Positions 55,479-59,746 of a stretch of 64,000 nucleotides of DNA are shown piece after piece. Positions within the stretch are counted from its first letter, which is position 1, and each line of letters opens with the position of its first letter. The translations under genes and the position numbers were made by a program. The DNA is from Escherichia coli O157:H7 (GTDB lineage: Bacteria > Pseudomonadota > Gammaproteobacteria > Enterobacterales > Enterobacteriaceae): the NCBI RefSeq assembly GCF_013167455.1, contig NZ_CP038328.1; one strand, written 5' to 3'. The notes under the pieces are model-generated. The model ran no database searches and was not told the DNA's origin. It saw nothing but the letters and a program-made list of their open reading frames with translations.

Positions 55479-55561
55479 TGTGTCTCCCTCCATCAATGGC
55501 AGTCACCATTAGTATGGTCACTGCCATGGATTCATGACAGAAAGAGATTGCTAAAACATTC

Positions 55562-56725
55562 TTATCCAGCAATGTAATGCGGAACGAAACGTGAGGTGTC
55601 TTTGGTGATCAGTGTGTTATCTTCACGGATCCCCATTCCGCACGCTTCATCATCGACAATCCAGCTACCGATGAGTGTGTAGCTATCGCCAAACCGCGGC
55701 AGAGGTTGAAACGCCTGGTAGATCATCGGTTCATCGGCGTAATCACCATCAGCGTGGTCAACGACGTTATTCTGGCCGTCGAAAATGGTGACATTTCCGC
55801 CTTCGCGCGAGTAGATCGGTTTACGCACATAGCTTTCGCCAGCGGCAATCTGCGGTTTTTCACCCTCAAACCAGGATGCAAGAAGGTTAGGATGACCAGG
55901 GAAGAAGCGCCAAAGCAGCGGCATTAGCCCTTTATTACTCAAGATACTTTTCCATAACGGCTCCACCCATTGCTCGCGACGCTTGCGCAGCAGCGGACCG
56001 TTATCGTCACGCATCATCCACTCCAGCGGATACAGCTTAAATGCACGCTGGATGACATTATCATCAAGATCGGTCAGTACGCCGCCGACGCCCAAACCGA
56101 GATCTTCAATGTAGATAAACCGCGACTCCTGCCCTGCCTGCTGGGCGCAGTCCTGCAAGTACAGCACGGTACTCCTGTCTTCATCGGTGTCCTGACAGCA
56201 GCAAAAATAAAACGGTTCCCGACTGTAAAGCTCGCTAAAGCGTGAAATCAGGCGTTCCTGAATAGCATTGTACTGATCGGCATCACGCGGAATAATGCCG
56301 CTGCGCCGGGCATCCTCCAGCCACAGCCACTGGAAATAAGCCGACTCGTACAATGAAGTTGGCGTATCGGCGTTGTACTCCAGCAGCTTCACCGGCGCAT
56401 TGCCACACCAGGCAAAATCCATCCGTCCATACAGCGAAGGATCGCGGGCGCGCCAGCTTTCAGCGATCACATCCCAGTACAACGGCGGGATCGCCAGTTG
56501 CGTCAGGATCTCTTCATCTTTTACCGCGCGATCCACCACCTCAAGGCACATCTGATGCAGTTCCGCAGTCGGTTTTTCGATCTGCTCTTCAATCTGGCGC
56601 AGAGTAAAACGGTAAGCCCGACTCTCATCCCAATAGATTTCATTGTCGATGATATGAAAGTCGAAACCGTTGTCAGCGGCGATCTGGTCCAGATCCCGTC
56701 GCACAGGAACGTTGTGTCTCAGCAT
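55562..56725 (-). CDS. yjfC: ATP-grasp protein YjfC (glutathionylspermidine-synthetase-like), 387 aa
   Basis: ORF-track 55562..56740 trimmed to MLRHNVPVRRDLDQIAADNGFDFHIID; 2 nt downstream of yjfM. Confidence 0.9.
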   Translation of the reverse strand: MLRHNVPVRRDLDQIAADNGFDFHIIDNEIYWDESRAYRFTLRQIEEQIEKPTAELHQMCLEVVDRAVKDEEILTQLAIPPLYWDVIAESWRARDPSLYGRMDFAWCGNAPVKLLEYNADTPTSLYESAYFQWLWLEDARRSGIIPRDADQYNAIQERLISRFSELYSREPFYFCCCQDTDEDRSTVLYLQDCAQQAGQESRFIYIEDLGLGVGGVLTDLDDNVIQRAFKLYPLEWMMRDDNGPLLRKRREQWVEPLWKSILSNKGLMPLLWRFFPGHPNLLASWFEGEKPQIAAGESYVRKPIYSREGGNVTIFDGQNNVVDHADGDYADEPMIYQAFQPLPRFGDSYTLIGSWIVDDEACGMGIREDNTLITKDTSRFVPHYIAG

Positions 56726-56727
56726 GA

Positions 56728-57366
56728 TTAGCCTCCCCAATGCCCACGGGCGCTGGAAGAACGACCATAGCCGCCGCGAGAAACGGTTGACGCTTTTTTG
56801 GTGGTAAAGCCGCCTGAAGAGTAAGACTCTTTTTTGCCAGAACCGGAGCGCCAGGAGTAATCACCGGAAGTGTTGCGCCAGACGGGGCGGGAAGCAAATG
56901 AGGATCCGCCGCTGTTATAGACAAACGGCTCATCGCGATCTTTACGAATAACCCGGCTTAACAAAAATCCAGAAACGACCGGGATCCAACTCTGTTCAAC
57001 ATTGTCGTAGTAGCAATTTTCGTACTTAGACTGACAGTTCTGCTGAGTCATATTCTTCGGAACATCGGCATAAAATGCCGCTTTGGCGTTGTTCCAGCCA
57101 CGCGCGCAAATGTCGGCATTATTACCGTCATCAATACAATCCTGCACTGTCGAATAAAACGTTCCGTCGCCGTCGTTATCGACATCGCCACTATCGCCAC
57201 AACCTTTCAATACAAAAAAAGCGGCACCGCCCATTAGCGCCAACGTTAAGTATTTTTGTGCGTAGCGATTGCGACGCGGTTCAAAAGGATTATTCGGTCT
57301 ACCAATGCGACTGATCGCTCCGTGACCAATTTTACTGTTATTTCTTGATTTGCGTTTTCTGGCCAT
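56728..57366 (-). CDS. yjfM: uncharacterized protein YjfM (DUF1190), 212 aa
   Basis: Full ORF; basic N-terminus, one hydrophobic segment, Gly/Ser-rich C-terminal tail. Confidence 0.85.
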   Translation of the reverse strand: MARKRKSRNNSKIGHGAISRIGRPNNPFEPRRNRYAQKYLTLALMGGAAFFVLKGCGDSGDVDNDGDGTFYSTVQDCIDDGNNADICARGWNNAKAAFYADVPKNMTQQNCQSKYENCYYDNVEQSWIPVVSGFLLSRVIRKDRDEPFVYNSGGSSFASRPVWRNTSGDYSWRSGSGKKESYSSGGFTTKKASTVSRGGYGRSSSARGHWGG

Positions 57367-57375
57367 GATCGTCCA

Positions 57376-57774
57376 TTACCATGTCATACAAGCTGCGTTA
57401 AAAATACCGCCAGCCAGCGCGGCGGTTCCCATAAACATTCCTGCTGCGGTATTGTGATTAATAATTTTTTCGCTTAATGCGGGCATATAAAGTCTGACAC
57501 CAGCAAAAACGAGTAACTGAATCACCAGTGCAATCCCGCCCCAGGCGAAATAGTCTGGAATACTCACCGCATTGATTGCCGCACTGGATAAGGGGATCAC
57601 GTAACCCAACAATGTACCGCTGAACGCCAGTGACGCTGCGGTATTATTGTTTTTGATTAATTGCCATTCATTGTGCGGTGTAATTTTGGAGTAGATAAAC
57701 AGAAAAATAATCACCATAGCCACGCCAATAAAAAAATAGGCACTAAAGGCAAGAAGTGAATCCAGTATATGCAT
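57376..57774 (-). CDS. yjfL: small inner-membrane protein YjfL (DUF350), 132 aa
   Basis: ORF-track 57376..57855 trimmed to the ATG giving MHILDSLLAFSAYFFIGVAMVIIFLF; four hydrophobic segments. Confidence 0.85.
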   Translation of the reverse strand: MHILDSLLAFSAYFFIGVAMVIIFLFIYSKITPHNEWQLIKNNNTAASLAFSGTLLGYVIPLSSAAINAVSIPDYFAWGGIALVIQLLVFAGVRLYMPALSEKIINHNTAAGMFMGTAALAGGIFNAACMTW

Positions 57775-57791
57775 TGTAAACGTCCTTGTAA

Positions 57792-58451
57792 TTAACCAAT
57801 AATATGAAGTGATGTCAGCGGGATATCGACACCCAACGCGCGCGAAAATAACCACTCTGGCTCGCCGAGATCGTTAAAAGATTCCTCACCATTTAGCAGC
57901 AAATATTCGTAAGTATCTTCGGTCACTTGCCGCTGGTAGCCCATGGTAAAATTATGGACTTCCCATTTAGCATGATTTTGATTTTCTACTTTTTCCAGCA
58001 TGTAGACGGGTTCGATATTTCCCGGTTCTTCGCTGTTAAAAAATCGCTGCCAGCGTTTTTCCTGCCAGTTTAAGGTCATTGCCCCCATCGTTTTGGCGTT
58101 GATCGCCTCGCGCCAGTGATTCTCTTTACTGATACCGTAGCTCTCTTCATAGACAAAGAGCTTGATATCATCAATGTCATCAATATCTTCGCCGCCGGTG
58201 GTATTGATTTGCAGAAACTCATCGCCTGAAGTGTAGTAGCGGAAAATCTGACTACCGCCGCCCAGATCGATGTGGCTGACAGCGACTACCGTAAATTCCT
58301 CACCCGGCAGCGCAATCAGCAATTCATCTTCCAGCAAACGAAACGCTAACGTGTCGAGCGTAAAGCCACTATTGAGATGAAGTCCCAGCGGACCGCGAGC
58401 GATAGCAGGCTTATTATCCTTGCCAAACAGACGCTGGAAAAAACCAGACAT
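57792..58451 (-). CDS. yjfK: uncharacterized protein YjfK (DUF2491), 219 aa
   Basis: Full ORF in tight series with yjfJ and yjfL. Confidence 0.85.
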   Translation of the reverse strand: MSGFFQRLFGKDNKPAIARGPLGLHLNSGFTLDTLAFRLLEDELLIALPGEEFTVVAVSHIDLGGGSQIFRYYTSGDEFLQINTTGGEDIDDIDDIKLFVYEESYGISKENHWREAINAKTMGAMTLNWQEKRWQRFFNSEEPGNIEPVYMLEKVENQNHAKWEVHNFTMGYQRQVTEDTYEYLLLNGEESFNDLGEPEWLFSRALGVDIPLTSLHIIG

Positions 58452-58501
58452 ATTTTATCCTTAAAATAGTTGCCAGCCTTGCAGTGAGGCTGGCAAAAAA
58501 A

Positions 58502-59200
58502 TTACTCGCCCTGTTGGCGTTGCAGTCTTGCTAATACATCCTGGGCGCTACTTTTATTGCTACCGCCAATTCCGGCTTCCGCCAGCTTTTCGTCAAGGTC
58601 GCGACCGTCTGCGACTTTTTCTAACTGTGCGGCAGCATCCAGGCGAGCCTGACGTTCGGCCTGACGCGTTTGCAGGCGTTTTAAGGATTCTGCTGCTGTC
58701 GAAACGCTGGAAGATGCGCCAACGGTAGAAGTCGTTACAGCCTGTTGTGCACGCTGCATGGCTTCAGTGGCTTTAACGACTTCCATTTGCTGCTCAAACT
58801 GAGCGATACGCTGCGCTGTCGCTGCAACTGCTTTTTCCACGCCATCACGGGAGACTTCCAGATTCGACAACACTTGCTCTTCAGCGGTAATGAGATTCTC
58901 AAGGCGCGCGATTTCTTCAGCAACTTCGTTAATCAACGACGGATTAACGTTCTTGCTTAACGCTTCCAGCGTACGGGCTTCCAGACTGGCTTTGCGCTCA
59001 CGTAAATCTTTCAGCTTATCGTGACTTAATTTCACCCGCGCCAGCAGATCAACGCGAGATTTTCCGGCTTTATCGAGTTCAGCTTTAGCGTCACGAATAT
59101 GCTGTTCCAGCATGCGCACACCCTGGGTTTCTTCAATGGATTCTTCCGCCTGGGAGATAAACGATTTCCCCAGCGTAAATAAACTTTTTAAAATTCCCAT
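58502..59200 (-). CDS. yjfJ: PspA/IM30-family protein YjfJ, 232 aa
   Basis: Full ORF; long coiled-coil sequence typical of PspA/Vipp1 (ESCRT-III-like) proteins. Confidence 0.9.
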   Translation of the reverse strand: MGILKSLFTLGKSFISQAEESIEETQGVRMLEQHIRDAKAELDKAGKSRVDLLARVKLSHDKLKDLRERKASLEARTLEALSKNVNPSLINEVAEEIARLENLITAEEQVLSNLEVSRDGVEKAVAATAQRIAQFEQQMEVVKATEAMQRAQQAVTTSTVGASSSVSTAAESLKRLQTRQAERQARLDAAAQLEKVADGRDLDEKLAEAGIGGSNKSSAQDVLARLQRQQGE

Positions 59201-59218
59201 AAATACCCGTCCTTGTAA

Positions 59219-59620
59219 TTAGTGTGAATATTCTTCTGTAATTTCAGCCAGATCCAATGCGTTATCTACCAGCGAGGTTATCTCAAGCAGGATATCTTCA
59301 AGAGAAGATTTAAGCGATAACGCCCCGAAAACAATGTAATACTCTTCTTGTTGTACGCTGGAGATTCCTACCGATGACAACGGCATCATCTTCTGATTTC
59401 TTAATAAGAAGGTATTAAATTCATCTGGATTGCTGATACTACTCACCGGACAAATAAAGGTTTCGATAATCATTTGGCGGGAAGTAAAAAGAATATTGAT
59501 TTGCAAATCGCCATAATCATTCATTTTAATAATTAATGCGTTCTCGCTATTTGTTACATCAATATTTTGTTCAGGTACAGTTTGCAGCGCCGTCGCCAGC
59601 GCCAACGGATTCCATGTCAT
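59219..59620 (-). CDS. yjfI: uncharacterized protein YjfI (DUF2170), 133 aa
   Basis: Full ORF, first gene of the yjfIJKLMC series. Confidence 0.85.
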   Translation of the reverse strand: MTWNPLALATALQTVPEQNIDVTNSENALIIKMNDYGDLQINILFTSRQMIIETFICPVSSISNPDEFNTFLLRNQKMMPLSSVGISSVQQEEYYIVFGALSLKSSLEDILLEITSLVDNALDLAEITEEYSH

Positions 59621-59698
59621 ATATTATTCCATATAGATTAAGTTTAAATATTAATAAAATGAATATTTGCAATACGTAATTATCTTACCAGCTATAGA

Positions 59699-59727
59699 CA
59701 AAAAAAAACCATCCAAATCTGGATGGC
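59699..59727 (-). terminator. rho-independent terminator after rlmB
   Basis: Reverse strand GCCATCCA-GATT-TGGATGG hairpin followed by a run of ~9 T. Confidence 0.7.
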
Positions 59728-59746
59728 TTTTCATAATTCAGAGGAA

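Follow-up and report, generated by a model that had tools for sequence, protein, structure and literature searches.

We identified yjfIJKLMC, a set of six adjacent genes in a window of Escherichia coli DNA (a stretch of 64,000 nucleotides from contig NZ_CP038328.1), as a real, widely conserved and already catalogued cluster. The six genes very probably form one functionally linked envelope module, and protection against membrane or ion-homeostasis stress is its somewhat probable role. The most useful new lead is the near-invariant Gly-Gly end of the lipoprotein that accompanies the ligase of this cluster, both in bacteria and in phages. All six genes are on the minus strand, and are listed here with positions in the coordinates of the whole window.

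59219-59620, minus strand: yjfI, 133 aa, a DUF2170, CesT/Tir-like small cytoplasmic protein, the presumed partner of YjfJ
58502-59200, minus strand: yjfJ, 232 aa, a member of the PspA/IM30/Vipp1 (bacterial ESCRT-III) family
57792-58451, minus strand: yjfK, 219 aa, a DUF2491, cytoplasmic beta-rich protein of orphan fold
57376-57774, minus strand: yjfL, 132 aa, a DUF350 polytopic small inner-membrane protein
56728-57366, minus strand: yjfM, 212 aa, a DUF1190, lipoprotein-type protein
55562-56725, minus strand: yjfC, 387 aa, a stand-alone ATP-grasp ligase of the glutathionylspermidine (GSP) synthetase type

A sequence-only reading of the window had described six co-directional genes separated by 2 to 50 nt, and the limits of the open reading frames (ORFs) agree with this, with measured spacers, in order from yjfI to yjfC, of 18, 50, 17, 9 and 2 nt, such that the start codon of yjfC is 2 nt past the stop codon of yjfM. 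The same six genes are found in the RefSeq annotation of a 100%-identical strain, and the surrounding 4.4-kb region is 100% identical to O157-type strains. The yjfIJKLMC region belongs to the core genome and not to a variable island: all but one of 5426 complete E. coli genomes (5425) contain it, and it is consistently flanked by rlmB and aidB, the latter downstream of yjfC on the same strand. An identical 14-nt string of stop codon plus ribosome-binding site (RBS), TAATTACAAGGACG, occurs on the minus strand at both the yjfI/yjfJ (59208-59221) and the yjfK/yjfL (57781-57794) junctions, and these are its two matches in the window, compared to 0.01 expected. Searches with hidden Markov models (HMMs) upheld all of the domain assignments, namely DUF2170, PspA_IM30, DUF2491, DUF350, DUF1190 and GSP_synth.

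To see how the cluster is distributed, we searched a single genome from each GTDB species using an alignment of YjfC; the 80 ligase loci obtained were then annotated with iterated local HMMs. In 78 of these loci the ligase gene is immediately preceded by a DUF1190 gene, the remaining two consisting of one locus at a contig end and one true orphan ligase. The gap between the yjfM and yjfC homologues has a median of 5 nt, and is 40 nt or less in 68 of 73 cases. The other genes show a nested distribution over the 80 loci (yjfM 78, yjfL 49, yjfK 36, yjfJ 34 and yjfI 32), and resolve into three architectures, here written with the last letters of the gene names: M-C alone in 28 loci, which are of the ygiBC type and have TolC upstream in 23; L-M-C in 13 loci; and I-J-(channel)-K-L-M-C in 29 loci, in the genomes of other species. 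Approximately 8 more loci are truncated or rearranged with the genes still adjacent, as in Pseudovibrio (M<L<K<IJC), Vibrio ruber (CIJKLM) and Novispirillum (IJCKLM). The full set was found in the Enterobacterales, Alteromonadales, Vibrionales and Oceanospirillales, in two alpha-proteobacterial genera, and in one Desulfurivibrionaceae genome. Thus, the six genes are kept together far outside E. coli, and the lack of synteny that had been named as a refutation of the sequence-only reading does not apply; the retention of adjacency even where gene order has been shuffled indicates functional linkage rather than the inheritance of an ancestral order. In 16 marine loci with the full architecture, we additionally noted that the ligase gene is closely followed by one for a rhomboid-family membrane protein of about 185 aa, which is absent in E. 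coli, and whose best match was the rhombosortase model TIGR03902 (8.8e-11, below the cut-off).

YjfM matches the Pfam family DUF1190 (1.6e-17). Its basic N-terminus leads into a hydrophobic segment, after which come Cys56, four invariant cysteines, a short Pro/Gly-containing hydrophobic motif, and a basic, Gly/Ser-rich tail that carries RGG[FY]G and terminates in HWGG-COOH. The basic N-terminus and Gly/Ser tail had been seen already by the sequence-only reading, and were borne out by counts of 12 Lys or Arg in residues 1-38, and of 40% Gly plus Ser in the tail. In an alignment of the DUF1190 family, the N-terminal part comprises a short basic region, a hydrophobic region and a lipobox Cys that is 97% conserved. 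The lipobox is canonical in 99 of 114 diverse DUF1190 representatives, obtained from a search of 1.8 billion cluster representatives (tested pattern [LVI][ASTVI][GAS]C), and most of the others keep the Cys; in E. coli YjfM the corresponding region is VLKGC, with Lys at -2, after a basic extension of 38 residues. The middle part is an acidic segment of about 68 residues with the four invariant cysteines, followed by the hydrophobic motif WFMPxMAGFM, of about 12-16 residues with invariant Pro and Gly. The tail is of about 80 residues, basic and Gly/Ser-rich, with an invariant R-G-G-F-G and then a terminal [W/F/M]-G-G. Net charge averages -6 over the segment following the lipobox Cys (81 of 83 proteins negative) and +7.4 over the tail (80 of 83 positive), an asymmetry that would fit a protein crossing the membrane with its tail in the cytoplasm.

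The terminal Gly-Gly is present in 76 of 80 DUF1190 homologues adjacent to a ligase. Gly-Gly also ends 91 of the 114 representatives, where tail composition would predict about 4-7, and a further 14 terminate in Gly-Ser. The binomial probability of this enrichment versus composition is about 1e-89, a nominal value that counts related proteins as independent. Trp occupies position -3 in 59 of 114 (52%), versus 1.3% Trp elsewhere in the tail.

YjfC had been read as an ATP-grasp enzyme resembling glutathionylspermidine synthetase, in agreement with its match to the Pfam family GSP_synth (PF03738, 4e-149). It corresponds to the PDB entries 7UK6/7UK7, "putative acid--amine ligase YjfC" (1.8e-274), and its paralogue YgiC to 7UK8/7UKA. 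Weaker matches were obtained to the structures of trypanothione synthetase (TryS, 1e-37) and Gss (1e-32). A CHAP amidase domain is absent from YjfC, whose alignment to Gss is confined to the synthetase part (residues 253-444) and, in the 619-position Gss model, to positions 487-613. Both YjfC and YgiC are reported to be peptide-spermidine ligases in vitro (Pederick 2023, as cited in passages of PMC11762307 and PMC12568646), and to be without GSP synthetase activity (Sui 2012, as cited in passages of PMC12506659 and PMC11762307); their physiological substrate is given as unknown in the literature in the relevant passage of PMC11762307. The statement that no member of the cluster has an experimentally defined function is therefore outdated, given these structures and in vitro activity, and the heat phenotype of yjfIJKL described below.

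We identified further copies of the ligase in phages, by tblastn against 50,697 phage records, of which 140 contained it. All of the phage ligase loci that were opened encode, just upstream of the ligase, a DUF1190-like lipoprotein that contains RGGFG and ends in Gly-Gly, as in the following.

Aeromonas T4-like phage phiAS4, ORF0185: a Band_7 protein upstream and a lysis-inhibition gene downstream
Ralstonia jumbo phage RSL1, ORF051: a DUF1190-ligase pair
Acinetobacter phage ZZ1, p0010: adjoins an SMR/QacE-like gene, near rIIA
Sinorhizobium jumbo phage Phosso, gene 533: a DUF1190-ligase pair

Two large metagenomic phage-like contigs likewise contain DUF1190-ligase pairs with a Gly-Gly-ended lipoprotein, within long runs of small co-directional ORFs that include NAMPT, NUDIX, RNA-ligase and Band_7 genes. 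The phage copies indicate that the M-C pair behaves as a self-contained mobile functional unit, and they are the strongest support for YjfM and YjfC as partner and enzyme. A DUF1190 protein with the terminus ...RSSFGG is additionally present in 50 records of Mydovirus-type Klebsiella, Cronobacter and Salmonella phages, one of which (KB57) was opened. Separately, one metagenomic I-J-K-L-M-C locus, without the channel gene, adjoins SIR2_2/TIR_2 and nSTAND1 genes; SIR2/TIR and nSTAND genes are typical of defence islands.

For YjfJ, the proposed PspA-type identity was confirmed by a match over its full length to PF04012 (7.5e-57, residues 2-232 to model positions 1-220), so that the absence of PspA-family HMM support, which would have spoken against it, was not observed. 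A profile of 17 YjfJ orthologues matches the Vipp1/PspA structures 8QBV, 8QBW and 6ZVR (4e-10, positions 1-228); a single-sequence phmmer search of YjfJ against solved structures gave no match. The treatment of YjfJ in PMC12492005 consists of a homology model only. YjfI matches the Pfam family DUF2170 (PF09938, 1.6e-44), the Pseudomonas aeruginosa BacA structure (PDB 8Q8O, 1.1e-16) and the NCBIfam BacA model (1e-26, below the cut-off of the model). BacA is the P. aeruginosa homologue of YjfI, for which a crystal structure (8Q8O) and a biofilm phenotype have been published (PMC10948618), and a CesT-like fold has been assigned to BacA/DUF2170 (PMC10948618, PMC11237479). The gene for YjfI lies beside that for a YjfJ homologue in 32 of the 80 ligase loci, and from this adjacency the client of YjfI is presumed to be YjfJ.

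Finally, for the remaining proteins, YjfK matches Pfam DUF2491 (1.2e-70) and YjfL matches Pfam DUF350 (1.4e-33). The hydropathy profile of YjfL contains two strong and two weaker hydrophobic segments, which is compatible with the four-helix membrane protein that the sequence-only reading had proposed and with the architecture of four transmembrane (TM) helices described for DUF350 (PMC11237479). We noted in the YjfK homologues a common basic amphipathic N-terminus, MFxKLFGKK, and a C-terminal Gly (...I-x-G) in 20 of 27 aligned sequences.

The cluster of the window lacks a gene that is present in related loci. The gap between yjfJ and yjfK is 1.0-1.3 kb in most full loci, and in 26 of the related loci it holds a gene for a 2-TM K+ channel of about 350 aa that combines the selectivity filter GST[LV]G[FY]GD with a cytoplasmic domain. 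The channel gene (about 356 aa) was found in Citrobacter, Enterobacter, many marine gamma-proteobacteria and a minority E. coli lineage, and is kept in only 19 of the 5426 complete E. coli genomes. Compared to a channel-bearing E. coli, homology ends at the yjfJ stop codon and restarts about 3 nt before the yjfK ATG; in the yjfJ/yjfK spacer of the window (58452-58501), 47 nt containing a hairpin replace the channel gene. As the channel is at the same position across several orders, parsimony favours its loss in mainstream E. coli, and the E. coli cluster would accordingly be a reduced form of a seven-gene cluster from which the K+ channel gene has been lost.

We investigated the sequences that may govern transcription of the cluster, which are as follows.

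59703-59732, minus strand: rlmB intrinsic terminator (-16.9 kcal/mol, z = -4.6), with a stem of 13 bp and a T9 tract after it
59621-59702, minus strand: yjfI leader/promoter region, AT-rich (GC 0.32)
58470-58496, minus strand: hairpin of 10 bp in the yjfJ/yjfK spacer (-17.1 kcal/mol, z = -3.4), with an imperfect U tract after it

The first two of these substantiate the earlier description of a cluster that follows the rlmB terminator and an AT-rich stretch upstream of yjfI, and the third is possibly a partial terminator or an mRNA-stabilising hairpin. An RpoD promoter, TTAATA-17-TGGAAT, has been reported from SELEX (systematic evolution of ligands by exponential enrichment) in the rlmB/yjfI spacer (PMC3946193), and was placed by count at 59654-59649 and 59631-59626. 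A consensus scan of the yjfI leader (59621-59702) gave no sigma-70-like site, and inspection of the yjfI upstream spacer by eye gave no convincing sigma-54 promoter, the best TGG-N8-TTGC-like string being mismatched in the critical -12 GC. The published transcription unit is nsrR-rnr-rlmB-yjfIJ (PMC3946193). E. coli strains evolved under heat switch on the co-regulated set yjfIJKL, termed the "YjfJ iModulon" (PMC12492005), and activation of the module by plasmid (yjfIJKL) made growth 1.21-fold faster at 42 C (PMC11472167). These published data agree with the membrane-stress role that had been suggested from the sequence.

The activating lesion is given in the supplement of PMC12492005 as DEL (T)9->8, rlmB/yjfI intergenic (+47/-80), and is presented in that study as a 1-nt promoter deletion 80 bp upstream of yjfI. 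Counted on the sequence, these offsets map to the U-tract of the rlmB terminator (59708-59700), and the lesion could, as an alternative to a promoter change, act through terminator read-through from nsrR-rnr-rlmB. The lesion lies upstream of yjfI and raises expression through yjfL, indicating that transcription passes the yjfJ/yjfK hairpin and extends at least to yjfL.

A terminator-like site at the 3' end of yjfL (57426-57406) was dropped, as its folding is no better than that of shuffled sequence (z = -0.45). An Rfam scan of the locus gave zero matches at gathering thresholds, identifying no structured RNA or riboswitch. In the yjfC/aidB spacer (55492-55531) we noted an inverted repeat of 18 nt, with 89% complementarity, a loop of 4 nt and no T-run after it, which may serve in the regulation of aidB and not as a terminator.

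From these data we propose that yjfIJKLMC is a composite inner-membrane stress module of three layers, in which YjfM is amidated by YjfC, a proposal on which we are evenly divided. The first layer would be an ancient mobile two-gene core, in which the lipoprotein YjfM (DUF1190) is paired with the ATP-grasp ligase YjfC; the second would be the DUF350 small membrane protein YjfL; and the third would consist of the PspA/ESCRT-III membrane-repair protein YjfJ with the CesT-like YjfI and YjfK, elsewhere mostly joined by the 2-TM K+ channel. YjfJ, held or delivered by YjfI, would coat and stabilise the stressed inner membrane in the manner of PspA and Vipp1. YjfC would use ATP to convert the carboxylate of the C-terminal Gly of YjfM (...HWGG) to an acyl-phosphate, and then to an amide with spermidine or another polyamine. 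YjfM would thereby become a polycation tethered to the membrane, which, together with YjfL, the channel and YjfJ, might limit ion leak or stabilise the bilayer. GspS and trypanothione synthetase, both homologues of YjfC, activate glutathione in this way, through an acyl-phosphate at its Gly carboxylate. Amidation of the C-terminal Gly of YjfM by YjfC is the simplest reading of this GspS/TryS chemistry, of the peptide-spermidine ligation seen in vitro and of the 2-nt gene spacing. Even so, that the YjfM C-terminus is the physiological substrate of YjfC is a tentative idea that we consider doubtful, and the general form of the proposal, in which YjfC, YgiC and their phage homologues amidate the [W/F/M]-Gly-Gly-COOH of the cognate DUF1190 lipoprotein with spermidine or putrescine, seems to us fairly unlikely.

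Several observations weigh against the amidation of YjfM within a PspA-type module. The most direct concerns topology, as the DUF1190 lipobox predicts export, so that the tail may be periplasmic, beyond the reach of a cytoplasmic ATP-dependent ligase, and the hydrophobic motif of about 12-16 residues is, as judged from its length, short for a membrane-spanning helix. The association of Gly-Gly with the ligase is also imperfect: members of DUF1190 ending in Ser-Ser or Gly-Glu still adjoin a ligase, and a search for DUF1190 proteins with neither Gly-Gly nor ligase yielded three informative non-Gly-Gly members, all of them ligase-adjacent, and thus no clean control by joint loss. Conversely, the DUF1190 protein of the Klebsiella Mydovirus KB57 (KB57_033) ends in ...RSSFGG and has no ligase within 2.5 kb, and may rely on the YgiC or YjfC of the host. 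An AlphaFold2 (AF2) model of YjfC fused through (GS)15 to the last 25 residues of YjfM, computed as a single chain with a paired 24-sequence alignment, left the YjfM tail undocked with a predicted local distance difference test (pLDDT) score of 27-37 (ligase pLDDT about 90), which is an uninformative negative. In the PspA layer, YjfJ is the most divergent member of its family and reportedly does not assemble into rings like those of PspA (PMC5333519), and yjfM and yjfC are outside the yjfIJKL iModulon (PMC12492005).

Two ways of placing the YjfM tail and the ligase together were tried and rejected. Twin-arginine translocation (Tat) export, as a way round the topology problem, was dropped since an RRxF-like motif occurs in only 3 of the 114 representatives. 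YjfM-YjfC fusions in databases were not accepted as proof of a common compartment, as they arise from frameshifts within the yjfM tail. The -1 frame of the yjfM tail is open into yjfC, and single-base indels at two A6 runs (56830-56835 and 56794-56799) give fusion ORFs; YjfM'-YjfC fusion ORFs of 474-601 aa are present in public assemblies, one cluster having 130 members, and may be sequencing errors, real alleles or the result of slippage.

Among the other explanations considered, YjfC might make soluble peptide-polyamine conjugates akin to glutathionylspermidine, as a buffer, a store or a means of polyamine detoxification under stress, with YjfM and YjfL sensing, binding or exporting them and the PspA part co-located only through the link between polyamines and membrane stress, which we regard as possible, if on the unlikely side. 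The activity reported in vitro is on free peptides (in the passages of PMC11762307 and PMC12568646 cited above), related operon variants carry S-adenosylmethionine (AdoMet) decarboxylase and polyamine oxidase genes (PMC11237479), an arginase/agmatinase-family gene adjoins one DUF1190-ligase pair and the SMR/QacE-like transporter gene adjoins that of phage ZZ1, all of which speak for soluble conjugates, as does the undocked YjfM tail of the AF2 model. However, soluble conjugates leave unexplained why a lipoprotein with a nearly invariant free [W/F/M]-G-G end is encoded beside the ligase, in 78 of 80 loci and in every opened phage locus, and no physiological small-peptide substrate is known in the literature (PMC11762307). 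The Gly-Gly end might instead be a signal for sorting, proteolysis or partner binding, recognised by a rhomboid/rhombosortase-type protease or a PDZ-type reader and unrelated to the ligase. The rhombosortase-like gene downstream of the ligase in the 16 marine loci, the export predicted by the lipobox and the Gly-Gly-ended DUF1190 protein of phage KB57 without adjacent ligase are consistent with this, but such a protease gene is missing from the cluster in E. coli and at most loci, a GlyGly-CTERM signal is Gly-Gly followed by a TM helix and not a free Gly-Gly terminus, and the ligase would have no role despite its near-universal adjacency to DUF1190. We therefore consider a signal of this kind unlikely.

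The six genes could, alternatively, be separate units, with yjfIJ as the tail of the nsrR-rnr-rlmB operon, yjfKL and yjfMC apart from it, and the six-gene system an artefact of packing. The published nsrR-rnr-rlmB-yjfIJ unit (PMC3946193), the stable hairpin after yjfJ, the restriction of the iModulon to yjfIJKL, and the occurrence of M-C alone in 28 loci and of L-M-C alone in 13, are all in keeping with such a division. Nonetheless, the full set occurs together in about 37 loci across distant orders, some with shuffled order, the spacers are of 2-18 nt except for that with the hairpin, the TAATTACAAGGACG stop-plus-RBS string recurs at two junctions, and the mutation upstream of yjfI raises expression through yjfL, past the hairpin, such that separate units appear quite improbable. 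Least of all do we expect an anti-phage defence or abortive-infection system, which we view as highly improbable: PspA was discovered through phage stress, parts of the module are present in phage genomes and one metagenomic locus lies beside SIR2/TIR and nSTAND genes, whereas the PADLOC matches are coiled-coil noise only (YjfJ, E about 1e-3, with none for the other proteins), and the locus belongs to the core genome (5425 of 5426 E. coli genomes), fixed between rlmB and aidB and outside of any variable island.

Were the amidation of DUF1190 lipoproteins by their ligases correct, it would represent a new post-translational modification of bacteria and phages, in which a ubiquitin-like Gly-Gly terminus is activated by an ATP-grasp enzyme. 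The polycation so formed would be tethered to the membrane and would tune the leak of ions, the activity of channels or porins, or the stability of the bilayer, alongside PspA-type repair proteins, and would provide a mechanistic tie of polyamines to envelope stress and to tolC phenotypes. Large phages would deploy the pair to condition the host envelope, explaining its presence in several unrelated phages. If refuted, the locus stays a well-conserved, already catalogued cluster. E. coli has in it a second PspA/ESCRT-III protein, in a context entirely unlike that of classical Psp, and in YjfC and YgiC two orphan ATP-grasp ligases with structures and in vitro activity.

Among known systems, RimK (acting on ribosomal protein S6) and tubulin-tyrosine ligase are ATP-grasp enzymes that act on the free C-terminal carboxylate of specific proteins. 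The target of RimK is encoded elsewhere, both of these enzymes add amino acids and not polyamines, and a protein substrate for YjfC is hypothetical. Gss and trypanothione synthetase have the same GSP_synth pre-ATP-grasp and ATP-grasp catalytic domain as YjfC, and the chemistry in common is the joining of a C-terminal Gly carboxylate to a polyamine amine. Gss differs in its CHAP amidase, a domain that YjfC does not have, and in its product, glutathionylspermidine, which YjfC is reported not to make (Sui 2012, as cited above); YjfC takes other peptides. The tolC-ygiB-ygiC locus contains a paralogous DUF1190-ligase pair of M-C architecture, with a lipoprotein tail of ...SRSMGG, and is in contrast without PspA, DUF2170, DUF2491 and DUF350 partners and Cpx-regulated (bioRxiv 10.1101/2021.12.13.472529). 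According to a passage of the same preprint, citing Dhamdhere and Zgurskaya 2010, the joint loss of YgiBC and YjfMC modifies the tolC growth defect.

The classical pspABCDE/PspF system employs the same PspA/IM30 effector family, with an amphipathic N-terminal start and a link to stress tolerance (PMC12492005), whereas the yjf cluster has no PspB/C/D/E or PspF genes, and all partners are different. The bacABCDEF cluster of P. aeruginosa (PA3732-) starts like the yjf cluster, with the DUF2170 protein BacA and then the PspA-family protein BacB, and differs in its other downstream genes, in the absence of a polyamine ligase and in the sigma-54 promoter reported there (PMC10948618). The closest counterpart was described by Ravi et al. 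2024 (mSystems, PMC11237479, section 19) as operons of a CesT/Tir-like and PspA dyad with a GSP-synthetase-related ATP-grasp ligase, such that the sequence-only view of yjfIJKLMC as an under-described system does not stand, the operon class being already published. Their "third group" has an identical parts list of DUF2170, PspA, DUF2491, DUF350, DUF1190 and ligase. It differs in that the class includes a ligand-gated K+ channel in the operon, while the cluster in the window is without the channel, and in that no substrate was proposed for the ligase and DUF1190 was termed a metal-chelating lipoprotein, where we propose the DUF1190 tail itself as a tentative ligase substrate.

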